From Savitreella phatthalungensis (lineage: Eukaryota), in contig AP039699.1 of assembly GCA_051599415.1 (NCBI GenBank), positions 62,001 through 126,000 of the forward strand: 64,000 nucleotides of DNA. The letters are read 5' to 3'. This document shows positions 3,554 to 47,360 of this stretch, piece by piece (the stretch's first letter is position 1; each line of letters opens with the position of its first letter). The notes under the pieces are model-generated. The model was not told the DNA's origin. It was given only the letters and a program-made list of their open reading frames with translations, and did not search any database. The position numbers and the translations under genes are program-made.

Positions 3554-5995
3554 ATGGGTCGGCGTCATCACTCTCATTCGATGGACGGCTTGTTAGGAGG
3601 GCCTTTGCAAAAAGCAAGTCGACGACGGCCGCAGTCGCGTTCTGTTACTTGGCTTGTGAGGGCAGCTTTCCTGTATATCGTGTACATGTTCTGCATCGGC
3701 TGTCCTGCTGTTCTTCGTCAAAAGGATCCAGCTATATGCCACCGCTACTATGCTCTGAAGCGCATAGCAACCCAGCAAATCGCCCCGCATCTTGAGCCCT
3801 ATTACCATGAGTACGCCGCACCTGTGGTTGCCAAGGGGCTTCCGTATTATCAACAGGCGAATGCCGCATACGCCAAGGTCGAAGACGCTGCCCGGCCTGT
3901 TGTTCAGTCGTCCTATGATTTCTATACGGACAACATTCATCCGCACGTCGCACGCAGCTGGCAGAACTCGGTAGTCGTATTTGATGATAAGGTCGGGAGA
4001 CACGTCTATAAGATTTTCGAGGACAATAAGCTCAAGGCTCGGCAGATGTGGTACCAGAACGTGGGACGCCGCTTGGATCGAGCGGAGCTTTACTACAACC
4101 AGTACATAGCTCCGCATCAAGCCTCAGCTCAAAACAAAGTCAACTATCTGTGGTTCGAGGTCGTCATTCCAGGCTATCGGAAGGCTTGGCCACATGTGGT
4201 CTCTGCGGCAGACCTAAGCGTACAGCAGTACCGCAGATATATGCAGCCCGCCCTCAGAAGGGTTGTCGATTCTCTTCTCAGATGGCTGAAGATACAGGTC
4301 TTGCCAGTCATTCGCCGGTACTATTACCTTTACATTGATCCACAGGTCTCACGCATAACAGACAAGGTATTCCAATTTCAGGCGGAACGCGGTATGAGCA
4401 GTCAGACTACAATTGCACAAGAGTCGCTTACCGCATCGATCTCTTCCTCTCTCGTACACATCCTTTCGACGACGACTATGACGCCAATCACTACGGTGAT
4501 CGCCGAGCAAACGCTCGTTGCAGAAGCTGCTGATCCATCGGCAAGCGCCTCTCTACAGCGTCTCATACAGGAGACAGCTGCAGAACGACTTGCCGAGCAC
4601 GCGAAAGCAGGTATTCGAGCAGAAGCAGATGTCGCGCTACCAGCGCTCGAGGAGCAGCTCGATGACATTCTGCCTTCCCTAGTCCGGACTGAGCGAATGA
4701 TTTGCGAGGACTACTTGCTCCAACTAGAAGATCTCTCCGTGTCAGCGGTCGGCTCAGTTGAAAGGCGCATCATATCGCAGGCGTCCCATCTCACAAACAA
4801 GGGACGAGCATTGGACGAGATATCTGAAGAGCTTCGTCCATACTTCGTTCGCGCTGGCAAATCGATTCATCGAGAAGCTGTCGAACTACGATCGTACTTG
4901 CACACGGTTTTGGAGAAGCTCGATGCACGCATCCAGCGTTCGGTGTCTCCTGTGCACGATGGAATTCAACATACATCGTCGCGATTGAGACGTGCGGCTG
5001 AATCGGCGTTGCAATCACAAGGGCAAGAACAGCTCTCAGAACAACGAATCGCCGAATTCGAGCGCCTCACCCAGGATGTCGACCAGGAGCTGCAAAATCT
5101 GGTAAGAAGCAAGACGAAGCTTTACACGAAGCAGCTTCAGGAGCTCCTCAAGCACACAGAGCACAAGGTGGAGGCTCTGGCCGGCGACGCAGCTCGAAAG
5201 CTCCAGGCGCTGCACAGCGTTGCGCCACACAAGATCAACATGAATGATCGCTCTGAGGAATTTGGCTATGGATACAAGCCAGTCGCAGCCATGTTGAGCG
5301 CGCGAGCCCTGTACGAGCAAGCAAGCGCTAAAATCGTCGGGACAGAAGATGTGCCTGCAGCGTCAAAGCTGGTAGACTCCGCCGCTGACGCAATGCGTCA
5401 TGCTACAGATGCAGTTGCCGATGCGTTCGACTACGCGACGCCGACTTCCATCGCCTCCGCCGCTGTCAACAATGCTGCAAGTGGCGCCTCAGTCGCTGCG
5501 GCGGCGCTCGCGCAAACCTTGCGGGATATTGATTTGAAAAACGTCGCATCCTCTGCCTCTGCAACAGCCGCGGACCTATCAGCTCAGGCTGAATCTGCAT
5601 ACGCTGCCGTGTCGAGTGTTGCTGCCAAAATCGACGGAGCCGATGTCCAGAGTCACGCAACCGAGGCTGCGTCCGCCGTTGTAGCCGCATTGAGCGATGC
5701 CGCGGCGGCTGCCTCGCAGGTCCTTGTCGGCCACCCCTCTGGCATTGCAGACCGCGTCGTCGGGGTCTTCGCACCCACAGAGACAAAGATGACAGACAAG
5801 ATTGTCGACGTGGCCGGAAGTCTCTTGAATGAAGCAGCCGGAAGCGCAACAAAAGCAGTCGAGGACATCGCTAGCTATGCTGCGGATTTTCACGCGAATC
5901 ACGTCTTTGACCAGGGCAAACAAGCTGTCCACCAGCATGTGATCGTGCCCGCTCGCGATGCGGTGAGTTCTGCGAGCAGTGCTGTTGTAGGATAG
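3554..5995 (+). CDS. Conserved fungal membrane-anchored coiled-coil protein (She10/Osw7-like) with an Ala/Ser-rich C-terminus
   Basis: 813-aa ORF; N-terminal TM segment followed by C-P...A-I-C and PHLEPYY repeats, a helical middle region and an A/S-rich tail. Confidence 0.6.
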   Translation: MGRRHHSHSMDGLLGGPLQKASRRRPQSRSVTWLVRAAFLYIVYMFCIGCPAVLRQKDPAICHRYYALKRIATQQIAPHLEPYYHEYAAPVVAKGLPYYQQANAAYAKVEDAARPVVQSSYDFYTDNIHPHVARSWQNSVVVFDDKVGRHVYKIFEDNKLKARQMWYQNVGRRLDRAELYYNQYIAPHQASAQNKVNYLWFEVVIPGYRKAWPHVVSAADLSVQQYRRYMQPALRRVVDSLLRWLKIQVLPVIRRYYYLYIDPQVSRITDKVFQFQAERGMSSQTTIAQESLTASISSSLVHILSTTTMTPITTVIAEQTLVAEAADPSASASLQRLIQETAAERLAEHAKAGIRAEADVALPALEEQLDDILPSLVRTERMICEDYLLQLEDLSVSAVGSVERRIISQASHLTNKGRALDEISEELRPYFVRAGKSIHREAVELRSYLHTVLEKLDARIQRSVSPVHDGIQHTSSRLRRAAESALQSQGQEQLSEQRIAEFERLTQDVDQELQNLVRSKTKLYTKQLQELLKHTEHKVEALAGDAARKLQALHSVAPHKINMNDRSEEFGYGYKPVAAMLSARALYEQASAKIVGTEDVPAASKLVDSAADAMRHATDAVADAFDYATPTSIASAAVNNAASGASVAAAALAQTLRDIDLKNVASSASATAADLSAQAESAYAAVSSVAAKIDGADVQSHATEAASAVVAALSDAAAAASQVLVGHPSGIADRVVGVFAPTETKMTDKIVDVAGSLLNEAAGSATKAVEDIASYAADFHANHVFDQGKQAVHQHVIVPARDAVSSASSAVVG

Positions 5996-7179
5996 CGGCA
6001 GTCCGGCTCCGAACAAGTGCCGTCGCTCTCTGCGTCGTCGTTCTCACGGCGCAAGATCTCGACAACGATGGGTAATTCAAGATTTGCGGAGAACCGTCGG
6101 CAGTGAGGCTTGCTGTCGAAGGATCTGGCTTTTCCGCGTTGAAAGATTCTGTCTCCACGGCTTGCGTAGCCGTCCAGCTCACACAGCGTCCCCGCTCTAT
6201 GATACAGGTTGGTCTTGGGCAAATTGGCGGTGCCGTGACCTTGCCACTTTCGCAGAGAATATAGCAATCTAATCTCATATCGCGAAAGCCGAAGCGTGAT
6301 TGTGCGTCAGTGCAACGATCAAACGTGCCTGGTCCAAGGACTGGCGATAGCAGGTCAGGAGTTACTCAAGTTCAGGAGATGCGGGACGCGAGCGTAGCGG
6401 ATGAACAAGTTTCTGAGTCTGTTCCGCGGTCAGGGGAGCGGCTTTGCCCTTCAAGTTTTGGAATAGTGCTGCTCGACGATTCACTACAGTGCGGCCGTCC
6501 AGACATGCGCCATCCACTCTGCACGCTTGCGTCTCGGCACTGGTTGGCAAGCCAACTGACGACAACGTTTATCTGCCTCGCTTGCGCTACGATCAACGGT
6601 GACGTCTGGGAGCACATGAAAGCGCGGGTAGTCAGACACGATCGTCATAATACGGATATCCGGACCCTGTCGCGAGTGGCAACTCGGGTTTGAAGACGTT
6701 CTTGACAGCATGCATGATGAATTCTTTAGGCTGTCATATAGCCTTGGGACAACGTCCATATTGATCACGTGGTCTGGCGACCAACTGAATATCACATTGA
6801 CGTGAATATGATCTGACAGCACGGACGGCGCGCATCTCTCGACGTGAGACGACGGCTGTTTATCGACTCTGCTTAACACGACTTGCCAGGCAGCCTGGCC
6901 GATCGGCCGCTCAACTCATGCTTTGCTGCGCGCTCCCTTCGAACAGGATTGCTTCTCGCGGAGCGTCATTGCTTTAAAGCGGATTGCTGACTCAGCATCG
7001 AACAGGTCTTTGGAAGCAAATATACACTGATTCGACGCACAAGGGTCTTCATCATCACGCGCAGCATAGAAAGATTGCGCGCGACAGTGTCTAGGGTTCA
7101 TTCAGATGAACATGCTCAATCATTCTTTTGTTCTTCATCACATAAAGCTCTTCAAGAAATTGCGCTGAATGTCAACACT

Positions 7180-9087
7180 ATGAGACATCACACGTCTTTG
7201 TCTGGTAACATTGCCGTCTGGACTATCGGCAATTGCCAGGCTCGCAGTGATTGGCAGCGGGGAGCAATCGATATTCGCTGGCCTGCACTGGTCCGGTGCC
7301 AACGTTGCACTGATCACCCTGGAACATGGATCATCAGCTGCCGGCAGACTGGTATCGATGTCGTCAAGTATAGATCCGCGGATGGCATTGTGGCTCAGCC
7401 AGATGTTACGTCTCGATTAGAGGGCGATATAATGCTCTTGGACGGTTCGCTCGATGCGGAGTCTGCTCGACAGGACGCCTTGCAGGCAGGTCTCAGCCTT
7501 TCTGATGCGTTTGGCATTATGCTTAGCATCCGATCGCATCGTGCCGAGTCCACAGCAGATGATGCGCCAGCTGAATTGAAGCGGCAACGTGACCATTACC
7601 TGGGAATGCTCAGAAATCAGAATGAGGCACAGCTCGAAACCCTCAAGTTGCAGCTCGACCGAGAGTTCAAGGCCAAGGCTGAGCGGACGGAGCGGGAGCT
7701 CTCATCACTCTCATCCGTTGTGCATTTCCCAGTGGACTGCACGGTGAATCTACCTGCCGAAGATATACGACGGCCTTCTAGAAGCTCGTCCGGCTCTATT
7801 CTCGCCACAGTCGAAGCGGTGTCCACCAGGGAATCTTCGACTCAGCGCACGACGACATCATCAGTAACACGTCCACCGCAGCGATCCGCGACGAATCCTC
7901 CGGAAACTAGACCGACGTCGATTTCCACGCTGCGAAAGCTGAGCATGCCACCGCTTCGCACGGGGAACGAGAAGCCTGTGGCAGGCGCGCTACGCTCGCC
8001 GGGCACATCTATCAAGCGCAAGAGCGTTCGGATTTCTGCAGATGCGCCTACACGAATCGATTCGCCCGCTGTCCGGCCTGAAGAATCTGAAGCAAGCGAC
8101 GCGGATACCGATGGTCCGGAGGATGGTCTGTTTGACCTTGACGAGACCCTGCCGCGTGTCTACACCGGGTCTAGTGCTCAGTCTATGAAGCAACAGATCA
8201 CAGCGATAGACGATTCGCTATCAGCGCGACTGCGACCGCGTGTGCCCGATAAGTACAGGTCCAAAAATGGTGATGTGTATGAAGATCGCGAAGGTGAGCA
8301 GCGCAGTTCTGTTGGCTTGCAGAGCGCCTTTGGTTTCGATGCAGCTGTTGACGGCGAGCCAAACGGCACATTGTCAATTGATCTGCCCGCGCAGAGTCGT
8401 GAGCGAGATGCCGAAGATGTTCGCGATGTGTATGCAACTTCTCTGCCTATGCCAATACCTCCGCCAGTGTCTCCGTCCAATGTGCTGCAGGATTGGACGC
8501 AAAGCTCGGATGCCGATGGCAAAGACTCGAAAAGTGGCAATGCGGCAGAGCTAAGTGCTCAGCATGCTAGGCATCAAGCACGAAAGGCCGCTTTGTCATT
8601 GGCCACCATCCGTCAGGGATATCTCGGACCGGACGCTACGGTCGTGCGTTCCTTGACGCGCCCGCTCAGCTCGATCAAAGATGTCCCTCTGAAAGGCATT
8701 CCGGCATCGAACGATAGTCTAGACGCCACAGCGCGTGGCGCATTGCGCCTGTGGCATCCACGGATGGAGACGAATGCGCCGCGGGCGTTGGCAGCTTCGG
8801 ATGCCCCCGAGCAAGTCGCAGATGATGTCGCGCCTGGTCATTCGCGCGTGTCTGCGAGTCAAGATGCTCCCTACTCGGAGCGAGATAGGCGATCTGATCG
8901 GGAATTTACTCGCCGGCGAAAAGATTGGCATCGAGCCATTGAAGCGTCGCTGCGTATGTCGGGCTTGATCTTACCCGCCGACAACGCCACAGGGGGCAGT
9001 GAGGCAAATCAGGACGTTCCGCAAGTACAGGAGTCTCTTGGGACCGACCAAAGCTCGTCGTTAGAGATCTTATCTTCAACTGCCTAG
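7180..9087 (+). CDS. Hypothetical protein; candidate PRAS40/Lobe (AKT1S1)-like TORC1 regulator
   Basis: First ATG at 7180; CxxC-containing N-domain, FGIML motif, coiled coil, then a disordered region with GLFDLDE, YATSLPMPIP and IEASLRM. Confidence 0.6.
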   Translation: MRHHTSLSGNIAVWTIGNCQARSDWQRGAIDIRWPALVRCQRCTDHPGTWIISCRQTGIDVVKYRSADGIVAQPDVTSRLEGDIMLLDGSLDAESARQDALQAGLSLSDAFGIMLSIRSHRAESTADDAPAELKRQRDHYLGMLRNQNEAQLETLKLQLDREFKAKAERTERELSSLSSVVHFPVDCTVNLPAEDIRRPSRSSSGSILATVEAVSTRESSTQRTTTSSVTRPPQRSATNPPETRPTSISTLRKLSMPPLRTGNEKPVAGALRSPGTSIKRKSVRISADAPTRIDSPAVRPEESEASDADTDGPEDGLFDLDETLPRVYTGSSAQSMKQQITAIDDSLSARLRPRVPDKYRSKNGDVYEDREGEQRSSVGLQSAFGFDAAVDGEPNGTLSIDLPAQSRERDAEDVRDVYATSLPMPIPPPVSPSNVLQDWTQSSDADGKDSKSGNAAELSAQHARHQARKAALSLATIRQGYLGPDATVVRSLTRPLSSIKDVPLKGIPASNDSLDATARGALRLWHPRMETNAPRALAASDAPEQVADDVAPGHSRVSASQDAPYSERDRRSDREFTRRRKDWHRAIEASLRMSGLILPADNATGGSEANQDVPQVQESLGTDQSSSLEILSSTA

Positions 9088-9096
9088 TGCAAAAGC

Positions 9097-10677
9097 TCAG
9101 CTGTTGAGCAATTCTTGCATGTCAGGCAGTATTCTTCGTGCGCCAGGTCTAGATGCGAGCAGTCCGGGTTCTGTTGTTGTCACATCGCCTGCATTGCGCC
9201 AGTGTCGCGTAACAGTCGGCCTCCTGGAAGAGACGATTGACGAGGTCATTACGTTCTTCTCGAGTTTGGTGGTCGCAAGCTGGCTAACAGCCGCACTCTG
9301 TTTGCATTGACGGCGTGCGTAATCCCGGAAGGCGCTCTCGAGCTGTTCCCGTGTGATTTCTTTCTTCTCCTGCTTCAGCCATTGATCTAGGTTCTCGCCT
9401 GAACTGTTGGTCCAAGGCTTCAAGCTGAGTCTGTTCATCATACCGCACGATTCAGTATTCAGACAGGTCATATCTATGTCTCGGGTCCTGTCGGCACGCG
9501 GCGTACTTCTTGGTTTGGCCTCGTCGAGCAAGACAGTTTCGAGCGCCCATGTCGGATCGAAGTTGCCTATGACCTCCGGGACGAAAGGTGGCCGCGAGAG
9601 ACCCTGTCGCAATGCCTGCCAGTCCATCCCACTAAAGAAATCGTGAGTTTCGATGCGACGCGGACTGTTGCGATCGAGGGGACGTGAGATACGTGTGGTC
9701 ATGGACCCTTTCAGTCGGAATCGAGGCTCGCGCTCCAGGAGGGCTTCGATAGCTCCACGACACGCCTCCGACACCGGTGGATCGGTCTTTGGTTGCTTGA
9801 GCCACTTGTGCCCCGAGTCATTTGCCCCGACGATGACGTCGGCGAGTTCAGAGACGCTGCGCGCGCTGAACGGCTTTTGGCCGTAAATGCTCTCGTAGAG
9901 CACGACGCCCAATGACCACCAGTCGACTGCAAAGTCGTACTCGTTTCCAGCGTGAATCTCTGGCGCCATATAAATCGGGGATCCTGATCTCGTCCTTGGC
10001 AATAGCCATTCTCCCTGCGTCTCCGTGCTGGGGCTCTCGCGGCGGAGTCGTGCCGATATGTTAAAATCTGTGAGATGAGCGTGACCGTGGTTGTCGAGTA
10101 AGATATTCTCCGGCTTGACATCACGATGCACGATCGCATTGCAGTGGAGATATTCGAGAGCCGCTGCAGTCTCGGCTATCCAATGTTTCGCAGTCTGCTC
10201 TGTCACGGTCTTTCTCGCCAGGTGGTAACGCAGGTCGCCGCCGAGCATCAGATCTAATACCAGTAGCAGATGATCGCGTGTCTGAAAAGCATAGTGCATA
10301 TTGACGATGAGCGGATGGTCGAGCTTGCTCAAAAGCTTCCGCTCACGAATGACGTTAGCGGTTGCGCCACGAGCGATACACTGCATCTTGTCAACATATT
10401 TGATCGCCAGCGCTTTTCCACTCTCGCGATGGCTACACCGACGTACCTCTCCAAATGCGCCGCGTCCGATAACTTGGCCCAGCTTGAAGGCGTTCAGGTC
10501 TATATGTTGATTGCAGGATCTGGATATAGCAGATGATACAATAAGTTTTGACATGCGATGGCGATTGAGAACGCGGAACAGGAGTGAGATTGAAAGCCTC
10601 GGCGTCTTGACCTCGGGCTTGATCTCTAATGCTGACACCTCGACATACTTTCGGCTCGTGAGAACGTCCATCGACAT
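9097..10677 (-). CDS. AGC-group Ser/Thr kinase, YANK/STK32 (S. pombe Ppk33-like)
   Basis: GRGAFG, AIK, HRDVKPEN, DFNIS (DFN is typical of YANK), YMAPE, DWWSLG and AGC tail PPFVP...NFDPT. Confidence 0.9.
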   Translation of the reverse strand: MSMDVLTSRKYVEVSALEIKPEVKTPRLSISLLFRVLNRHRMSKLIVSSAISRSCNQHIDLNAFKLGQVIGRGAFGEVRRCSHRESGKALAIKYVDKMQCIARGATANVIRERKLLSKLDHPLIVNMHYAFQTRDHLLLVLDLMLGGDLRYHLARKTVTEQTAKHWIAETAAALEYLHCNAIVHRDVKPENILLDNHGHAHLTDFNISARLRRESPSTETQGEWLLPRTRSGSPIYMAPEIHAGNEYDFAVDWWSLGVVLYESIYGQKPFSARSVSELADVIVGANDSGHKWLKQPKTDPPVSEACRGAIEALLEREPRFRLKGSMTTRISRPLDRNSPRRIETHDFFSGMDWQALRQGLSRPPFVPEVIGNFDPTWALETVLLDEAKPRSTPRADRTRDIDMTCLNTESCGMMNRLSLKPWTNSSGENLDQWLKQEKKEITREQLESAFRDYARRQCKQSAAVSQLATTKLEKNVMTSSIVSSRRPTVTRHWRNAGDVTTTEPGLLASRPGARRILPDMQELLNS

Positions 10678-11998: not shown

Positions 11999-12032
11999 TA
12001 AAGTCGAAACACCTAATATTGATCACCTTTAA
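11999..12032 (+). repeat. Left terminal inverted repeat core
   Basis: taaagtcgAAacacctaATattgatcacctttaa versus the reverse complement of the right copy, taaagtcgCTacacctaGAattgatcacctttaa. Confidence 0.85.
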
Positions 12033-12109
12033 CTTCGCGCAGAAAATAAAGACGCGTCGAACACGTCACCACCTACCTTCAAGACAGCCTACTGCCTCTC
12101 CTAGCGCCT

Positions 12110-13876
12110 ATGGACGCGCTCTGCCGTGAGGCATGCCTCCAGGCAGCCTTGAACCACTACGCTGCTCGAAGAGACGGCAAAAAACCGTCTCTCCGTGATG
12201 CTGCAGCAGAATACAGCGTTTCACCCTCTACTTTGAGGCATTGGCTGCAGAATGGCAATAGGACTGCCTCAGAGGCCGCCAGAGAGCGCCAAAAGCTGAC
12301 AGAAACACAGGAGAAGGCCATAGTAGAGATGCTGCACAGAAGGGCTGCAGTAGGCTATCCTATGACTCCTATGGAGGTCACCAACCTAGCAGATAAGTTT
12401 TTCGAATCTCGCGGCAGCACAGTGCACCTCGGAATGCGCTGGTTTCCTTCCTTCAAATTACGCCATCCTGACATCCACACAGTGCGCAGCAATCGCATTG
12501 ACCACAGCCGCATGTACGCGGTGGATTCAGCCACTGTGGACGCCTATTTCAAGATCCTAGGCGCCTATCTTCGAGAGGAAGCGATCCTGCCTGAGGATAT
12601 CTGGAATGCTGACGAATCTGGCCTCATGATGGGCCGTTCCCAGTCCTCCCAGGTGGTGATTCCGCTGCAGCAGAAGGGTAAGAAGCGCGCTGTGGCAGCA
12701 GACAATGGAGATCGCGAAACAGTCAGCTGCATGGCCTGCATTTCTGCTGCAGGTGCTCATTTACAGCCAGTTCTGGTGTTCAGGCGGTCCGAGGCGAAGA
12801 GGCAGGCCTGTGGTAAGGCTGTGGAGGCAGGGCTGGCGCCTCCTGATGAGGCGAAGTACCTAGGCACGCCTGGAAACGCTGTACGCGTGTTTCACTCGAA
12901 AAACGGCTTCCTCACGTCCCAGTTAATCGTCCAGTGGCTACAGGAGGTCTTCCTGCCTGCCACAGCGCGAGATCCACCGAGGACGCGCGTCCTAGTGATC
13001 GATGGCGCCTGCGCCCACGCCACCCACGAGGTCATGTACGAATGCGCGAAAAATGGCGTCAAACTCGTCTACCTGCCTGCTCACAGCTCCCACCTCACAC
13101 AGCCGCTTGACCTAGCTGTATTCTCGCCTCTGAAGAACTACTATGGGCAGGCAGTAAGGGTTCTTAGCCACAGGCTAGCAGGCAGGCCCTGGGGACGCGA
13201 AGAATTCATCTCGATCTTTCTAGGCGCCTGGGGCAAGGCGCTGACGCGGCAGAACATCACCTCAGGCTTCAGGCAAGGCGGTATCTGGCCCTATGATCCA
13301 CAGGCAGTGCGCCGAAGCCTGCTCTCTTACAACAATTCAGTCGAATCTGCCTCGGAAGCTGCGAAAAGGCCAGAAAGGCCTGCCTTGGCCACCCTGACCA
13401 CCAATGCAGCCAATACACTGCCTAAATCGGTCAAAGCGACACGCGCAACACTGCAGGCAGCTGGAAAAGAGAGATACAAGGTGCTAGAGCTAGCACTTGC
13501 AGAGAATGCGCGAAAAGATCGCCTCATTGATGAACTGAAGACTGCTGCAGAACAGCTCCAGTTCATGATCGCCGATAGGGACGAGACTATAGCAGCCCTG
13601 CAGGCCAAGGCCTCGCGTCCTAGGGCAGCCTTCAAGGCACAGCAGCTGGCTAGAGGAGTGGACTGGCTAAAAGGACTGCTCGGCAAAGACTACACAGATA
13701 TGAGGTGGCACTGGATTGCAGCGAAAGCGAGGGCTGCTAAAATTGAGCCTAGAGCATGGATAGAGGCACAGGACCAAGCTACCTTACTTTCAGAGCTAGC
13801 GCTGGTGATTCCATCGAATAGCGAGCAATCTACGGAGAAGGTGCCTTCGAAGAGGCGACAAAAAAAACGTGTGTGA
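12110..13876 (+). CDS. Fot1/pogo-family transposase (HTH-psq, HTH_Tnp_Tc5/CENP-B, DDE_1)
   Basis: HTH SLRDAAAEYSVSPSTLR; catalytic residues in WNADESG, LVIDGACAH and QPLDLAVF with DD35D spacing; C-terminal basic NLS KRRQKKR. Confidence 0.95.
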   Translation: MDALCREACLQAALNHYAARRDGKKPSLRDAAAEYSVSPSTLRHWLQNGNRTASEAARERQKLTETQEKAIVEMLHRRAAVGYPMTPMEVTNLADKFFESRGSTVHLGMRWFPSFKLRHPDIHTVRSNRIDHSRMYAVDSATVDAYFKILGAYLREEAILPEDIWNADESGLMMGRSQSSQVVIPLQQKGKKRAVAADNGDRETVSCMACISAAGAHLQPVLVFRRSEAKRQACGKAVEAGLAPPDEAKYLGTPGNAVRVFHSKNGFLTSQLIVQWLQEVFLPATARDPPRTRVLVIDGACAHATHEVMYECAKNGVKLVYLPAHSSHLTQPLDLAVFSPLKNYYGQAVRVLSHRLAGRPWGREEFISIFLGAWGKALTRQNITSGFRQGGIWPYDPQAVRRSLLSYNNSVESASEAAKRPERPALATLTTNAANTLPKSVKATRATLQAAGKERYKVLELALAENARKDRLIDELKTAAEQLQFMIADRDETIAALQAKASRPRAAFKAQQLARGVDWLKGLLGKDYTDMRWHWIAAKARAAKIEPRAWIEAQDQATLLSELALVIPSNSEQSTEKVPSKRRQKKRV

Positions 13877-13888
13877 AATTGATTAATC

Positions 13889-13922
13889 TTAAAGGTGATC
13901 AATTCTAGGTGTAGCGACTTTA
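13889..13922 (-). repeat. Right terminal inverted repeat core
   Basis: Reverse complement matches 11999-12032 at 30/34 positions; starts 12 nt after the transposase stop. Confidence 0.85.
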
Positions 13923-27842: not shown

Positions 27843-29204
27843 ATGCAGAGCGATCTGATGCGCGAGGTCAAGACACCGCCGCCTCCGAGCAGTCCCGTCC
27901 TGAGACAGAACCCAACACCCAAGACGCCAGAAGTCTTCAGACGGACCCTAGGTGCGGCAGCACCGATCGATGCACCAAGATCCAGGCAATTCATGTCTGT
28001 ACCATCTGCGGAGCCTGTGGAGGAAACATGGTCGCCCATAAGCGAGAGCGAAATCGATGCGCTGGCAGGTCCCGACGCTCGTGCCAAGCTCAAGCTCGTG
28101 CAGCGCAGTCTGCGTGCAGAGCGTGCACAAACAAGCTCGCAAGCTCGGCGCGCTGCTCACTGGAGGCTTCAGTACAACATGCTTTTCGCGGAACATACCT
28201 TTCAGCACGATCGATCGGCCGTACAAGCATCTCTGACGGACCAGGAGCGGTCGCTACTCGTCCAGCGGCACGATCGCGCGCTCTCGGAGCTCGATGATAT
28301 GCGACGTCGTCACCGCAAGGCCAAGCGAAAGTGTCTCGAGCTGGCAGGTGACGTCGAACGTTTGGCCACGTGTATCGACCACTTACAACGGCAGATCAAC
28401 GATCGCGCTGATACAACACCCCGCTCTACCTCTCGCACACTCGAGGAGGAAGAGACAGACGACGACGACTCGCTCGACCACAAATCTCGATCGCCACCTT
28501 TTAATTCAGCCACACTCGAGTCAAGGACAAGAGATCCAATTGATCCTGTCAGACCGGCCATTCCATACGGCAGGCTGCGTCGCCTGTCCGCTCTCGAGGC
28601 ATCCGCTCCGTCCTCCGGGCCACGCTCAGCTAGGTCGGAATCAGTCCTTCACTCGGGAGTATTCTCGCCACATTCGTCACCGCCACAATCTGTCCCACCT
28701 CTGAACATGCACAGCGGCGGACCACAGCACCAAACGAACGACCGCGGAGACGTCTTTGGAGGGCCGCTGCCATCAGCGAGCACGTCACATGCATGGCCGA
28801 CTTCTGCTACTGGGGCGATCGATGATGTGGACGGCGTGACAGGTCCAGGCAGGCGAGCGAGGCCAGCCGACCGACGGGCTCGTGCATCCGGAACGCTTGA
28901 CAATGGTGGCCTACTTGCACTTTCGGACGCTGCCGTTGCTGAACTCGCGGCCGCCAGCTCACGTGGATCAGTCACATCTTCTGACTCGTGTGCATCCCCA
29001 GACAGTAGCAGGGACATCTCGCTATCGCCACCTGTTTCACAGCCTATCGCCGTTGGATCCCATGAGCTCGCGAACGCTACCCATCACGAAGCGTCCGTGA
29101 AGCGACAGTCGCCAACGGAGGATGCAGCAGCTTCAGACATTAGCAATGATGACGTGCGACAAGCCAAACGGCCGCGTCCTAAAAGAATGGCAAACGCAAT
29201 CTAA
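27843..29204 (+). CDS. Hypothetical coiled-coil/disordered protein
   Basis: Long open frame (from 27666, first ATG at 27843); coiled coil with AAHWRLQYNML, Ser/Pro-rich tail and a C-terminal basic NLS-like KRPRPKR. Confidence 0.65.
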   Translation: MQSDLMREVKTPPPPSSPVLRQNPTPKTPEVFRRTLGAAAPIDAPRSRQFMSVPSAEPVEETWSPISESEIDALAGPDARAKLKLVQRSLRAERAQTSSQARRAAHWRLQYNMLFAEHTFQHDRSAVQASLTDQERSLLVQRHDRALSELDDMRRRHRKAKRKCLELAGDVERLATCIDHLQRQINDRADTTPRSTSRTLEEEETDDDDSLDHKSRSPPFNSATLESRTRDPIDPVRPAIPYGRLRRLSALEASAPSSGPRSARSESVLHSGVFSPHSSPPQSVPPLNMHSGGPQHQTNDRGDVFGGPLPSASTSHAWPTSATGAIDDVDGVTGPGRRARPADRRARASGTLDNGGLLALSDAAVAELAAASSRGSVTSSDSCASPDSSRDISLSPPVSQPIAVGSHELANATHHEASVKRQSPTEDAAASDISNDDVRQAKRPRPKRMANAI

Positions 29205-29328: not shown

Positions 29329-32300
29329 TCATGTGGCATCCGCTGAGCATGGTGGTGCTTCATCAGCAGCATCATTCTCTTGAAAGAGTCGACGAGCCGT
29401 GCGATCGTTGAGTGATTGATCGAGCAACCAATTCTCACCTCCGCGCGCAAGGCGCTCAATGCTCGTACTCTCGCAAACCCGGCGTACACGTTCGACAATG
29501 ATCTCTGGAATGTAAATTCGGGTCGGCTCTTCGCCACCTATTTCATGCTCGCCGCTCGTTTCCTCGCGATGCAGCACTTCGAACTCGGTGGAATGAGCGT
29601 TCGTAAGCTCGTCGAGAGCGCCCTGCACTTGATGTTTGGCTTGTGGCACACGCTGATAGATTCTATCGAGCATGCCGAGCTGCAAATGCAACACATCGGT
29701 CGCTTCGGCAAAGGTGAGTTGTTCGGCATCCGTACGAACGCGTTTCTGTAGAGCTTCGTTGCTTGGGTGGTTGACTGCCGATCTTTTGCGCGATGTCAGA
29801 GGTGTGGCGAGACCGCCATTGAATGTTGCAGGATCAGAATTGGCGGTGCCATCGAAGCACGGAGTGCGTGGCGGCTCAGCATGATCCGCAGGGTCATCTG
29901 CACGCCTGAACGTTGCTGGTACAGGCTCATCATCTGCCACAGGTTGTCCGAGATCATGAATGTTGCTGTCGAGGCCCGAGTCTTCTTCCGGGTCCAATTC
30001 GCTTATGGCATTCGGACTCGTAGCCACTGTGCCCGTAGACGGTCGCAGATCCCTTGTTCCCGGAGGATCAAGCTCCGCTCTGTCATCAGACATCAATCTT
30101 GTTTGTGAATGCTTGCGCGCAGTCTGTGCTGCTTGAGAAGCATCTTGTGCGAGCCAGTGTACCGTTTCGTCCCTGTTCCTATCGTGCTCATCTCCTGGAC
30201 CCTGGTCATCAGGTGCGCGCGCGATCGGCACTGGCGCATCTGTGTCATCTGCATCACTGACTACATCGTCAACAAGATTTTCTTCCACGCCGAGCGGGTC
30301 GCCATCCTCTTGGGATATCAACATCTCATGCGCAATTTGCTCGTAATATTCGTCTGAAATGATTGTGGCGTTGAAGACTAGGCTGTACTCGACAGGCATC
30401 TTGACAATGCCATTCTGGTCGAGCCAGAAATCAACCTGATCGCGTGGCTGTTGCCATATTGCCCCCAGAAAGTTTTTGAATGTCTTGTCGACTTTTAGGA
30501 ACGTCGTGACCTCGTCAAAGAGCTTCTGCTTCTTGTCGATCTCGCGTACATCAGTACTGACTGCGTTGACAGCACAGGGCTCAGCTTGAATGAATAAAGA
30601 GAATGCTTCTCTTGCACTCAGCGTGTGCATAGCGTATGCATTGGGACACTCACGCTGGAGACTGACGCCAGTATCCAGGTTGATTGAAAGCGACTGGCTG
30701 ATTCGTTCCACCTGATAGACCTCCGCGCGGCTGAGCATACTCGCTAGACGCACGCTGACTTTGGCTGTATCGTTGACGTAGATCCAGCGACATATATCCT
30801 CGGCGTGACGCTGCAACGACTGCGTAAGCCTGACATTAGAGACTGGCTGGCCGCTGAAGGACTTAGTGCGCTGAACAACATCAGCGAGCGAGATGACAGG
30901 TTGTTCGGCCAATCGATAAAGGCTTTTGCGCAGCGGCAATTGAGACGGCTCTATTGCTAGCAATCGAAGGTCTTTGACGAAAACCTGCGCCGCTACGACG
31001 TCATCTGCAATGAAACAGCGCCCGTCGTTAGCTGTGCACATGTATTCTCCCGAGCTACCACGCAAAATATAGATCGGCAACTCGTCTAGCACAGCTTTAT
31101 AGCTCGCCGAGGTCTCGTCCGTAATCCTGCGAGACATCTCATCGAGAATCTCGTTGACCAGACAGACATCAGAGTCCTCAATGGGCTGAAGTCCAGGTAC
31201 AGGATTTGGCAGAATGCTCCGAAGTAGAGAATGGCAGTTGACAGGGCTGAGATTGTCGATCTCGAGCATGTTGGCGAAAAGGCGTCTACGATCGGGGTAG
31301 TGGTTCTTCAGAATCAGACCACAGCGCGACAAGAATCGCTGCTTTGTTTCGATATAGCGGAAGCATGGGAGCTGGAGGCTGCAATCCCAGAATACCGATT
31401 CTTCCGTATGTGCTAGGCGTTGCCAGCGACCGGAAGCTGGGTTGTAAATCAACTTGTTGTCGTGCATCTCCTGTCTGAGACGATTACAATCAAGTTCACT
31501 CGTGTAGGCCTCGAGCTTCTTATAGATGCGAGCGATTGCGGGCAGGTCCGTAGAAGCCGCTTCAGATAGCTTGCCTAATGTCTTGAGGTAATGGGACTGG
31601 TTTTGAGTGGTTGTCACGCCAAAGTGCTCAAGGAGACTGCGATATTGTCGCACGCGGCCTGCAGGGCAGACAACGTATGGTAGCTCGCAATCTCGAAGAT
31701 CCTCGGTCTGCAGATAAACTTGCTTCAGGGGTAAAAGCTGACCGTCGCTGCAAACGACGTGCAGCTCCTGCATGGCGTTGACGAAGCTGTGGTTGCTCAG
31801 CCAGTCTTTCACCAAATGTCGGCCGGCGTGGAGTTCCGCGGCCATGTAGGAGATGAATGCATCCGCTGTCGTTGTGTCGCGGGTCATGTGCTTAAGATCA
31901 GCAGGAAGGGTACCACCGACGATCGTCGGTCCGATCTTTGCACCATGCTTAAGAAGGAAATGTGTTGTTGTCTCAGATTCTAGATACGCCTTGTGAATGC
32001 AATGCGAACCACTCTTGCCAAGGGCTGGCTCAAGCATACCCGTCTGGTCGATGTATACGGCCGGCAAAGGAACAAGGGTATCTTTTGTAGTCATCACGCG
32101 ATAATCTTGTGGCCATGCTGGAATAGCGGATTCGTTGCCAGGTATAATGCGTTCAAGCCAGCACTGATGCCTGAGCAAATCAGTGATTTCTCGCGTGAAG
32201 CTTGGTCGGCGATGGATCGCTAGCAACACATCTGCGACCGTGATGCTTGTTGCTCGCCTCACTGCCAGTGTTGATGACAAGAACTTGTCTATGTCATCAG

Positions 32301-34041
32301 CGCGCTGATGCAGCTCCTTGGGAACGAAGAGAACATTTCTGTCGAGGTTTTCAAATTCCTTCTGCGCCGCGGCGTCCTGACTGGTCAATAGCAGTCTCGG
32401 GTGTCTGTACTGGCAAAGACGGAGAGATTTCTCATCTTTTGGGGTACATGACGGACCCGCTGGAATGCAGCAGAGATCCTTGAGCTGTTCAGCCTTGACT
32501 TTGACTGATAGAAAGGCTTTCAGAAGCACTTTGAACCATCCTAGGCCTGGCGACTGAAGCTTGCCTTCGAATTCCTCTCGACTCATTGCACCTAAGCCTT
32601 GAAGAAGTTGCGAAGGCTTAAGTGGCATACAGTCGAGACATCTCAGCGCATTGGTATCGACGTCTTTGTAGCTAGAGCTTGCAACATAAAGATGAGGAGT
32701 ACGAATGATCGGTTCATTCTGAAAGATGAATTCTCGGCGCAGGGATACGCAATCGCGGCCTCTCTGTAGGTCGCCGTCTGTGTCAATGACACAACGCATT
32801 TGGCGCATCAGCTCTACTAGCTTCTGGGCAACAGGTCGTAAGGTGTCGTCGAACCCAACAATGCGACGAGCAGCATTATCGCTTCCTGGTAGCCACCGAA
32901 GGCAAGAGAACCGCAACGGGCTGGAGGACTCGACTATCGCCATCAGACTCTCGGCAATGAGTCGCGGGAGCTGGTCAAGCAGAAGCTTGTTCCATGGCAG
33001 ATCCTTTTTGAAGTCTTCTCGATTAGTCGACGTGACGAAGTCGGCATGGATGACAAAGCGGAATCCACTGAACCTCATGGGCAGGAAAGCGAACAGGTAA
33101 TGGGAAGATCCCTTGAAAGCATCTTCTGGTTCAAGTCTCTTGCCCTCGCTGCGACAGGGAAACGCGATTTTGATGACCGTCGATGTCTGTCCGGGTCGCG
33201 CTTCTGTTTGTGCTTTACGCATGTCAAGCTGGTGCTCGAATAGCACGAAGGGCTGTTCGTGTTGAGTGGCATTGTTGCCGGGTTGAATATGCTTGCTGAC
33301 GAGTTTGAAAAAGCTCAAGTTCTCTTTTTGAACTGGATCGCACGAGAATCGCTTGCGTGTTCCCTGCTCGCCTATGACGTGTATGAGCTTGAGACGACGA
33401 AGGAAGAGCAGCATCTGAGGATGCAGATCCCAGGCCCAGTCAAGCATATTGGTTTTTTGATCGTCGTCGATGCGTTTCTCGTCAAACTCAAGGACCATGA
33501 CAGTCTTGGATTTGTCCGGCAAGTCAATGGGGAATGATTCGCTATGGGGTCAGTCCTCTCTGAGAATTCGAGGCGAGACCATGCCAAGCGTTCCAGGCTC
33601 ATCGTTGAGGGAGAAGCAATAATAGTCACTGAAGATGCTCACCGTCTTGAACACACTAAAACAGGCCTTGAAGCCAAGACCTTTCTCGCCGATCTGCTCC
33701 GCGTTTTGAGTCTTGGAGGACATGGCCACGTTGCAAATGGCACGGACATTAGCTTCTGTAAAGCCGAGCTGATTTCCTGAGAGGACGACGAAAAGTGGGT
33801 TGGAAATGTCGATGACGAGCTCAGCTTTTTCGAGAGAGTTTGTGTTATACTGTGCATCATCTGCATTCTGGATGAGTTCGAAGAGCAACTTGTGATTCTC
33901 TGTCGTTTGAGTAGCGATATGGTCAAGAGTCCTTGCAAGCGCTTGAGTGCGAGGATCGTCCTCATCGCCAGCCCATTGTGACTTGATGTCCTGCAGAACG
34001 GCTCTTCGCTGAGCTCTTATGACATCCAGAGGATCAGACAT
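29329..34041 (-). pseudogene. Sacsin/NO VEIN-like GHKL ATPase with one in-frame TGA at 33552-33550 (pseudogene, readthrough gene or sequencing error)
   Basis: ELIQNADDA, GFTEANVRAIC and IGEKGLGFKACF lie before the stop; LLFLRRL and FAFLP...FVIHADFVTSTNRE...WN lie after it; both ORFs share one frame (1570 codons, stop at codon 164). Confidence 0.75.
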
Positions 34042-45575: not shown

Positions 45576-45906
45576 ATGTTCACCCACGGCATTGCTTCCG
45601 CCGTAATCGCCTTCGCCTCTGTGGCACAGGCTCAAATCTTCTCCAACAGCTCCAGTGCTTCAGTTTCTGCCTCGGCCTCTGGCAACGCTGGCGTCGGTGC
45701 TGGATCGATCGTGTCAGCGTCTGCATCCGCAAGCTCTTCTGCTAGCGTCAGCTCCGCTCTGTTCTCCAACTCAACCACGACCACCACAGCTCAGGTCACG
45801 TCGACGACCACCACACTCGTCAACGGAGGCACGATCCTTCCAGGATCCGGTGTCAGCTCTGGCTCTGGCTCTGCCAACTCTGGTTCTAACGCTGGCTCCA
45901 ACGCTG

Positions 45907-45937
<31 letters not shown>

Positions 45938-47360
45938 CTCCGGTGCTGGTGCAGGCGCTGGCTCCAACACTGCTGGATCTGGCGTCGGCGCCGGTTCCAC
46001 GAACGCTGGCTCTGGTGCTGCTCCGGTCGCCGCGGCAGCTGGCACCAACGGTGTCGTCACTGTGTACCGCTACGTGTCAGCTACTCAGACAGTCGTGGTC
46101 AACAACTGCGTCTGCCCATCTGGCCTTGCCTCCGGCCCGGGCACTGGCTCTGGCGTCGGTGCCGGCTCCAACAATGCTGGCTCGGGCGCAGGTGCAGGTG
46201 CACAGCCCGTCCAGACACTGACGCAGACCTTCACACAGTCTTTGACAACACAGACAATCACGCTTCCGAACGGCCAGGTCTCGACCACTATCATCCCTGT
46301 GCTCGGCACGATCACCCTGACACAGACAATCGCTACCACGCTCAGCCCGACCGGCAATGCTGGTATTGGTGCAGGTGCTGGAAACTCCGTCAGCCCTACC
46401 ACCACACCAACCGGTGGTGCTGGCATCAACCCGAACTCACAGCTCACTGCTACCTCCTCGGCTCCATTCACAAACAGCTCGACCACGACCACTCAGCCAT
46501 TGGTCTCAGCTTCATCCGTGCCAGTCAACGGCACTGGTGGCGTTCTGCCTGGATCGCAGACATCTGTGACTGCAGCACCTGGGGCAAGCAACAGCTCGTT
46601 CTCTATCCTGCCCATCGCCCAGCCCACACAGTCCGCATCCTCAGTGATGAACTCGACATCACCCGTCGCAAGCTCTAGCGCTAGTACTAACGGAACTGTT
46701 CCATCTCCTTCGACGCCGGCTTCATCCGTCGCACCGACACCGTCCGGATTCTATGTCTTTGGCTCAAGGAGCACGGATAACTCCTCGGTCGGTGCCTTGT
46801 TCGCGTTCGATCTCGGGACTGGAAATGGTGCGAATTTCGTTGTACCTCAGGGCGGTCCGTCAGATGTGTTTGAGCTCGTCTCGGACACGACCGGCTCCAA
46901 CTCGGCGTTCAAGAAGCGTGACATCTCCGTTACACAAGGAGATCTCACTGTGCGTCGAGGTACTAACTACAGCGCCGCTGGAGGCGACTCACCTTGCTCC
47001 CTCTCGTACGGAACGAACACTCCATCCGCGACAGACAACCTCGCGTTTGTGTCATTCTCCAGCAATTCAGCCAATTGGCTCACTCCAGTGTCTTTCAGTC
47101 TTGGAGCAGTTGATGCAGTGAGTGGCCTCGGTAGCGTGACAGTCACCAACGGCCTGCCCTATGGCTGCGAGACTTCGGTCGTCGACCCAACCATGCCGGG
47201 ACCGGCGGGTCTTGGTTATCAGTTCTGGACCTTTGATTCGGCAACGACGGCTCAGAGCAGCACAGCCTGCTCCACTGGATTCTTCCCGCTCAACCTGCAG
47301 TACGCACCTACAGTCGCAACTGACGCTCAGCTCCAGTGCCAGGCTGCCGGTCGCAATTAG
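45576..47360 (+). CDS. Secreted Ser/Thr/Gly-rich mucin-like protein with a Kex2 site and a Cys-containing C-terminal domain
   Basis: Signal peptide MFTHGIASAVIAFASVAQA; GS/GAG repeats; several N-x-S/T sequons; KKR site; strong codon bias; TATAAGAA at 45381. Confidence 0.85.
45906..45941 (+). repeat. Coding hexamer repeat (GGCTCT)5 GGCTCC, encoding (Gly-Ser)6
   Basis: Read directly from the sequence. Confidence 0.9.

Follow-up and report, generated by a model that had tools for sequence, protein, structure and literature searches.

The window analyzed in this study is a 64-kb stretch of contig AP039699.1 of Savitreella phatthalungensis, and the gene in question lies at positions 7180 to 9087 of its forward strand. 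This open reading frame (ORF) is uninterrupted and encodes, in the standard code, a protein of 635 amino acids (aa), termed P0001, in which serine, alanine, arginine and aspartate are abundant and phenylalanine occurs seven times. A previous reading of the same DNA, made from the sequence alone, had proposed on the basis of three short motifs that the product is a retained fungal homolog of PRAS40 (AKT1S1) and Drosophila Lobe, acting on target of rapamycin complex 1 (TORC1). Translation confirmed the ORF, and each motif was detected where that reading had placed it: GLFDLDE at aa 316 to 322 (positions 8125 to 8145, with F318 at 8131), YATSLPMPIP at aa 418 to 427 (8431 to 8460) and WHRAIEASLRM at aa 583 to 593 (8926 to 8958), preceded by CQRC at aa 40 to 43 (7297 to 7308) and FGIML at aa 111 to 115 (7510 to 7524). 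These motifs, and all other features of P0001 described below, are on the forward strand.

When 1.84 billion representative proteins were scanned in full with HMMER, two proteins had an E value of ≤0.001: the query and a single relative of 801 aa, P0002 (E = 1.2e-29), which originates from an assembly contig of 9,252 bases. Each of the two proteins formed a singleton cluster. Since a homolog exists, P0001 was counted as the product of a real gene, and the start codon was supported because the MAFFT alignment of the two proteins began at Met1 of both; this alignment extended to about aa 604 with 32% identity overall, and a BLASTP alignment spanning aa 49 to 604 had 29% identity. The ORF is a genuine single-exon protein-coding gene belonging to a two-member family. 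With this one relative and no Pfam family at an E value of ≤10, the protein also deserved its description as an orphan. Word-index searches with P0001, with the P0001/P0002 alignment and with the region from aa 265 to 330 recovered only the query; P0002 was missed too, indicating that these searches were insensitive and constitute weak evidence. There was no usable match for P0001 in the ESM Atlas, and a metagenome scan with the P0001/P0002 alignment produced 325 pattern matches but no relatives, while a degenerate DNA pattern for AIEAS[LM]RMSGLILP had no matches in the metagenome scan.

Contigs with at least 99% identity to the locus (positions 7000 to 9300) were detected in four further sequencing runs (X3 to X6) from three studies, one of these runs being labeled as a phyllosphere metagenome. 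The pieces extended over 192 to 265 nucleotides of the gene and contained the variants K156R, A342V and a synonymous change at A470, none of which fell within a motif; at this length and identity, they were uninformative on motif conservation. A fifth piece, in X6, was 37 nucleotides long, less than 90% alike and had loose ends, and it is probably unrelated.

The structure of P0001 was predicted with AlphaFold2 (AF2) from the two-sequence P0001/P0002 alignment, giving a mean predicted local distance difference test (pLDDT) value of 44.5. A small, beta-rich domain of seven strands, which contains CQRC, was predicted for aa 1 to 90 (positions 7180 to 7449; pLDDT of 66 to 79). Folding of the N-terminal 186 residues alone was uninformative, with aa 1 to 91 having a pLDDT of less than 50. 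The domain model (aa 2 to 98) exhibited weak structural matches of the beta-tent type, with 71 to 83 residues aligned and Z scores of 4 to 5. The best of these were 3fac_H (Z of 5.0 over 83 residues), MsrB1 (Z of 4.7) and the thalidomide-binding domain of cereblon (Z of about 4), and Foldseek gave E values of at least 0.15 throughout, including 0.84 for Schizosaccharomyces pombe Mis18. This set of matches (RSP_2168, MsrB, Gfa, the cereblon thalidomide-binding domain and Mis18) was consistent but weak, and a possible beta-tent fold of the modeled domain is a lead only. A beta-tent-type domain followed by a coiled coil is the arrangement found in Mis18. P0001 lacks the two CxxC knuckles of the Yippee/Mis18 proteins and had no Pfam Yippee-Mis18 match, and its fold matches to this group were weak. 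The sequence-only reading had drawn attention to an N-terminal CxxC-containing domain and to FGIML; both motifs are present in P0001 but neither is conserved in P0002.

The beta domain is followed by one long, coiled-coil-like helix predicted for aa 129 to 178 (positions 7564 to 7713; pLDDT of 65 to 83), which contains a conserved LK..LDRE[FY] stretch and corresponds to the coiled coil that had been anticipated. Structure comparison of the full P0001 model detected generic long-helix matches only (Z of ≤6.1), and complex prediction with two copies of aa 1 to 185 gave scores of 0.36 to 0.41 versus 0.45 for a control.

The remainder of the protein was predicted to be largely disordered, in keeping with the original description: pLDDT values of less than 50 were found for 450 of the 635 residues in P0001, and aa 179 to 453 were at this level with no secondary structure. 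A sliding comparison of identity between P0001 and P0002 detected six conserved islands, which together account for 16% of aa 179 to 635. Island A (aa 269 to 300; positions 7984 to 8079) comprises G.LRSPG, a basic K[RK]K run and VRISA..P.RI.SPAV.P, within which the Ser-Pro sites S273 and S295 are conserved. Island B (aa 314 to 325; positions 8119 to 8154) is ED.[LM]FDLDET.P, an acidic context surrounding the core FDLDE at positions 8131 to 8145. Island C (aa 418 to 429; positions 8431 to 8466) is YATSLPM.IPPP, with 11 of 12 residues being identical in P0002. A helix predicted for aa 454 to 478 (pLDDT of 46 to 59) ends in island D (aa 470 to 479, with SLAT[IL]RQ at aa 473 to 479), the two together spanning positions 8539 to 8616, and island E is PLSS[IV]KDVP (aa 495 to 503; positions 8662 to 8688). 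Island F (aa 576 to 599), F.RRR..W..AIEAS.RMSGLILP, lies in a feature (positions 8878 to 8976) in which an amphipathic basic helix predicted for aa 567 to 593 (pLDDT of 73 to 76) is followed by the hydrophobic MSGLILP; the helix holds the most amphipathic 18-residue window of P0001 (hydrophobic moment of 0.65). The three motifs that had prompted the comparison with PRAS40 are three of these six islands, which is the strongest point in favor of the sequence-only reading, and, as judged from the one available homolog, these motifs are real conserved elements.

Island B contains a putative TOR signaling (TOS) motif. The FDLDE segment has a pLDDT of less than 50 and acidic flanks. It is the sole match to F.[ILMVF]D[ILMVFE] in P0001; P0002 likewise has a single match, which is aligned with that of P0001, and the core is invariant. 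As a matter of pattern alone, both proteins carry a TOS sequence, and the proposal of a TOS-type motif appears to be sound to that extent. The consensus is given as F-x-hydrophobic-D-hydrophobic in an excerpt of PMC8786283. Extracts of PMC6325617 give it as F/acidic/hydrophobic/acidic/hydrophobic, with the PRAS40 variant FVMDE ending in E, and describe a Raptor pocket that favors an acidic context and a TOS site located ∼65 Å from the kinase active site. In S. pombe, the Raptor ortholog Mip1 binds Psk1 and Atg13 via TOS motifs, with that of Atg13 being FDIDT, and FSLDE is a candidate TOS motif in Saccharomyces cerevisiae Ypk3 (PMC8542387). A literature text search for FDLDE yielded no relevant occurrence.

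The likeness to PRAS40 was examined by scoring PRAS40 strings against P0001 and P0002 with an ungapped BLOSUM62 comparison and by comparing these scores with those of shuffled sequences. The bare TOS expression was present in 569 of 20,000 shuffles of P0001 (2.8%), and the score of the TOS 5-mer was reached in about 7% of shuffles. Across the 22 ORFs of at least 250 aa in the window, which total 13,492 residues, this expression was matched twice, one of the matches being that in P0001. The TOS 8-mer had a score of 25 at aa 316 of P0001, which 261 of 100,000 shuffles equaled or exceeded, and a lower score of 16 in P0002 (22,633 of 100,000 shuffles), as the Gly-Leu ahead of the phenylalanine is not conserved.

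The 10-mer containing S183 and KSLP of PRAS40 scored 35 at aa 418 of P0001, a level that 6 of 100,000 whole-sequence shuffles and 2 to 6 of 50,000 block shuffles attained; in the latter, residues were permuted within blocks of 20 to 50 residues and local composition was kept. In P0002 the score was 36, and the corresponding values were 1 of 100,000 and 1 to 3 of 50,000. P0001 has TSLP versus KSLP and is identical to the 10-mer quoted in the sequence-only reading at 6 of 10 residues. The claim of an S183-like site drew some support, in that YATSLPM.IPPP appears to resemble the quoted PRAS40 sequence far beyond the shuffles. The KSLP region of PRAS40 is described, second-hand, as an mTOR-Raptor binding region, a second point of contact, in an extract of PMC5053690. 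The joint probability of two matches in the right order, in one protein and to one template, was near 1e-7, and both matches lie within the conserved 16% of the tail.

Motif conservation and the S183/KSLP-like match provide some support for a TOS-bearing protein that may act on TORC1 in the manner of PRAS40. The reading that we favor is that P0001 is a lineage-restricted linear-motif scaffold which has Raptor/Kog1 as its docking site, is either a TORC1 substrate or a competitor and is PRAS40-like in logic; this reading is tentative, and we assign it a probability of roughly 0.3. TORC1 is the most likely single partner and mechanism, although coincidence, with the motifs serving other partners, is no less likely than TORC1 docking.

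In this TORC1-docking model, the architecture of a small N-terminal beta domain, a long coiled-coil-type helix and a ∼450-residue disordered tail conserved only in six short motifs would be that of a scaffold or regulated substrate whose motifs dock on conserved machinery. FDLDE would bind the groove of Raptor/Kog1, docking would bring the serine sites to the kinase, and a disordered linker of 100 residues could span the distance between the TOS site and the active site. Phosphorylation would be expected at S421 and perhaps also at the Ser-Pro sites S273 and S295. At high occupancy the protein would compete with other TOS substrates, as PRAS40 does. No Raptor/Kog1, Lst8 or TOR gene was present among the ORFs of the window. 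A more ambitious version of this model, in which P0001 is the first PRAS40-type regulator outside animals and a substrate-competitive inhibitor that contacts the TOS groove, has a KSLP-like site and reaches the FRB domain via its helix, is doubtful; such a regulator could be an extremely diverged survivor from an opisthokont ancestor or an independent invention, and its coiled coil might render it bivalent for the dimeric complex.

A series of results weighs against TORC1 docking. All statements on conservation derive from one pairwise comparison, that of P0001 and P0002 (n = 2). The PRAS40 strings used for scoring were those quoted in the sequence-only reading, with FVMDE and KSLP alone being confirmed by papers, and a literature text search for KSLPVSVP, the 8-letter core of the 10-mer, found no occurrence. 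Residues following SLP are IPPPVSPS in P0001 and IPPPGFSS in P0002, which are proline rich and for which AF2 predicted no strand. Extracts of PMC6325617 and PMC7464330 describe a PRAS40 strand that pairs with mLST8 after the KSLP region, and the proline-rich IPPPVSPS appears unlike a pairing beta strand. The PRAS40 helix 12-mer had its best score in P0001 (16) at aa 90 and not at aa 583, a level that 65,519 of 100,000 shuffles attained, and its score of 15 in P0002 was reached by 90,596 of 100,000. The proposed FRB-binding motif is conserved and a predicted amphipathic helix, but its likeness to the PRAS40 helix was at the level of chance, and therefore the "three motifs" are two motifs and a generic amphipathic helix. 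Furthermore, P0001 was selected from a scan of ∼250,000 windows, in which a handful of such coincidences is expected, so that a probability of 1e-7 does not exclude chance.

The database searches pointed in the same direction. An hmmscan of Pfam-A, which included PRAS (PF15798, the accession as listed in an excerpt of PMC11836306), detected no families for P0001 or P0002 at an E value of ≤10; as the HMMER filters hide most matches above an E value of ∼0.1, what this excludes is a significant Pfam match. Sequence searches of the PDB with the whole protein, the TOS segment, the helix segment and the family profile recovered no PRAS40 chain: whole P0001 gave coiled-coil-type noise only (E values of 0.53 to 0.68), the TOS segment had no matches, the helix segment had one unrelated match (E = 0.54) and the P0001/P0002 profile had none at an E value of ≤10. 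The Akt-type pattern R.R..[ST] was absent from P0001, as the sequence-only reading had itself remarked of the Akt-site segment, and occurred once, unaligned, in P0002. Finally, island B also fits an expression for docking of the phosphatase PP2A-B56, [LMFYWIC]..[IVLWC].E, which is aligned in both proteins.

Many of these findings would be accounted for by coincidence, in which case P0001 would be a disordered, lineage-specific scaffold and its motifs would serve partners that have nothing to do with TORC1. This explanation is plausible while falling somewhat short of an even chance; it is the union of many mechanisms, none of which is individually likelier than TORC1 docking. It would explain the absence of a profile or structural-database link to PRAS40, the chance-level helix motif, the 2.8% and 7% frequencies of the TOS pattern and score in shuffles and the failure of CxxC and FGIML to be conserved in P0002. 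Two family members among about 15 billion proteins are a poor fit with an ancient conserved regulator, and PRAS40 is described as "animal-specific" in an extract of PMC3236823. Less readily explained by coincidence are the S183-like match, which was reached by 1 to 6 of 50,000 to 100,000 shuffles in both proteins, the fact that this site follows the TOS-like motif, which is also its place in PRAS40, and the confinement of both matches to the conserved 16% of the tail.

A specific alternative is that [LM]FDLDE is an LxxIxE-type motif, with leucine at position 4, through which PP2A-B56 would be brought to the nearby Ser-Pro sites. The relaxed expression is matched in both proteins, a conserved basic run is found ∼35 residues upstream of [LM]FDLDE and the SP sites S273 and S295 are conserved; an excerpt of PMC8786283 describes LxxIxE motifs and the contribution that a basic stretch makes to B56 docking. 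We regard this alternative as unlikely, since position 4 is Leu rather than Ile, position 1 is Met in P0002 and the invariant F318 and D319 occupy free positions of the motif, leaving their conservation unexplained. P0002 also fails the stricter form of LxxIxE. An even less probable explanation is an acidic, aromatic-centered motif of the activation-domain type, in which the basic run would be a nuclear localization signal and the F-D-L-D core would bind either a coactivator or some other hydrophobic groove. Island B may resemble classic acidic activation domains, the motif has an acidic context with SEASDADTDGPEDG upstream, and P0001 contains a K[KR].[KR] match; however, no DNA-binding or known transcription domain was detected in the Pfam scans and the basic-run expression is unaligned in P0002. 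Patterns for other docking motifs were applied as well: PP1 RVxF and Atg8 LIR were absent, and a clathrin box was present in each protein but unaligned and hence not conserved.

Common descent of P0001 with the animal PRAS40/Lobe family is very improbable: the succession, common to both, of a TOS-like motif, then an S183/KSLP-like site and then an amphipathic helix, the conservation of these motifs and the significant similarity of the 10-mer are set against the absence of a Pfam PRAS match, an Akt-type site and helix similarity above chance, an N-terminus consisting of a folded domain and a coiled coil and not a proline-rich segment, spacings that are 2 to 5 times longer and a single relative among the 1.84 billion representatives. 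The lack of any PRAS match in Pfam at an E value of ≤10 was an outcome set beforehand as grounds for abandoning the claim of a retained homolog. A second such outcome, loss of the three motifs among orthologs, was not observed, since all three are conserved islands in P0002. The literature as excerpted agrees, in that tables in the reviews PMC7464330 and PMC11836306 show no PRAS40 for S. cerevisiae or the filamentous Dikarya. Family membership is not supported by the sequence comparisons; any likeness may reflect convergence, or the sequences may have diverged too far for a decision. The motif likeness provides a testable lead and not a demonstrated PRAS40 relative.

If P0001 does dock on TORC1 through a TOS motif and a KSLP-like site, multisite substrate-competitive control of TORC1 would be older, or more easily reinvented, than has been assumed, and the protein would provide a new handle on substrate recognition by Raptor/Kog1. 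Fungi are thought to be without PRAS40-type endogenous TORC1 inhibitors, according to extracts of PMC7464330, PMC11836306 and PMC3236823, and TOS motifs in fungi were shown only recently (PMC8542387). If the likeness is coincidental, P0001 would serve as a warning that homology is not established by matching two or three short motifs, even if these are conserved.

The gene content of the window is fungal and includes Mis12, Paf1, Pol alpha, a Yrb30-type RanGTP-binding protein, Hsp70 and a kinesin. The 22 ORFs of at least 250 aa run uninterrupted, which suggests a compact, intron-poor genome, and the GC content ranges from 48 to 58%; neither a tRNA gene nor any Rfam family reaching its gathering score was detected in the 64 kb. 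Convergent to the P0001 gene, and with 9 bases between the stop codons, is a gene for an AGC-family protein kinase of 526 aa on the reverse strand (positions 9097 to 10677), whose best solved relative was STK32A/YANK1 (E = 1.1e-60), ahead of SGK1 and Akt. TOR typically has AGC kinases among its substrates; in a eukaryote, however, the fact that two genes are neighbors does not argue for a connection between them. An apparently intact DNA transposon of the pogo/Tc5 type is located at positions 11999 to 13922. Its 588-aa ORF (positions 12110 to 13876) matched DDE_1 (E = 3.1e-26) and, below threshold, HTH_Tnp_Tc5 (E = 0.0011; 19.3 bits versus a cutoff of 22.2 bits), and it is flanked by terminal inverted repeats of 34 nucleotides that are 88% complementary. 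Four more long ORFs had no Pfam family at the thresholds used and may encode further lineage-restricted or disordered proteins: positions 3554 to 5995 (+; 813 aa, with a subthreshold Apolipoprotein match only), 27843 to 29204 (+; 453 aa), 29329 to 33498 (−; 1389 aa) and 45576 to 47360 (+; 594 aa).

The N-terminal domain of P0001 is similar to the beta-tent domains of Yippee/Mis18, cereblon CULT, MsrB and Gfa in weak fold matches (Z of ≤5.0), but these domains carry zinc-binding CxxC pairs, of which a single CxxC is present in P0001 and not one in P0002. With the LxxIxE ligands of PP2A-B56, P0001 has in common a relaxed L..[IL].E, acidic residues around it and a basic run further upstream, but it has Leu at the key position, where those ligands have Ile.

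Like PRAS40 and Lobe, P0001 is mostly disordered. FDLDE and the FVMDE of PRAS40 are both of the TOS type and end in D-E, and in both proteins a Ser-Leu-Pro site lies downstream of the TOS-type motif and an amphipathic helix lies further downstream. P0001 is unlike PRAS40 in its 635-aa length, in its folded beta domain and coiled coil at the N-terminus in place of a proline-rich tail, in its longer linkers of 100 and 155 residues, in a helix that is unrelated by score, in being proline rich where PRAS40 has the mLST8-pairing strand, in having no RxRxx[ST] Akt-type site and in its presence in a fungus when PRAS40 is described as restricted to animals. P0001 is unrelated in sequence to the fungal TORC1 substrates with TOS motifs, namely, S. 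pombe Psk1 and Atg13 and the candidate S. cerevisiae Ypk3, and has neither a kinase nor a HORMA domain, but its FDLDE(T) is close to FDIDT of Atg13 and FSLDE of Ypk3 and shares with them the essential Phe and Asp.

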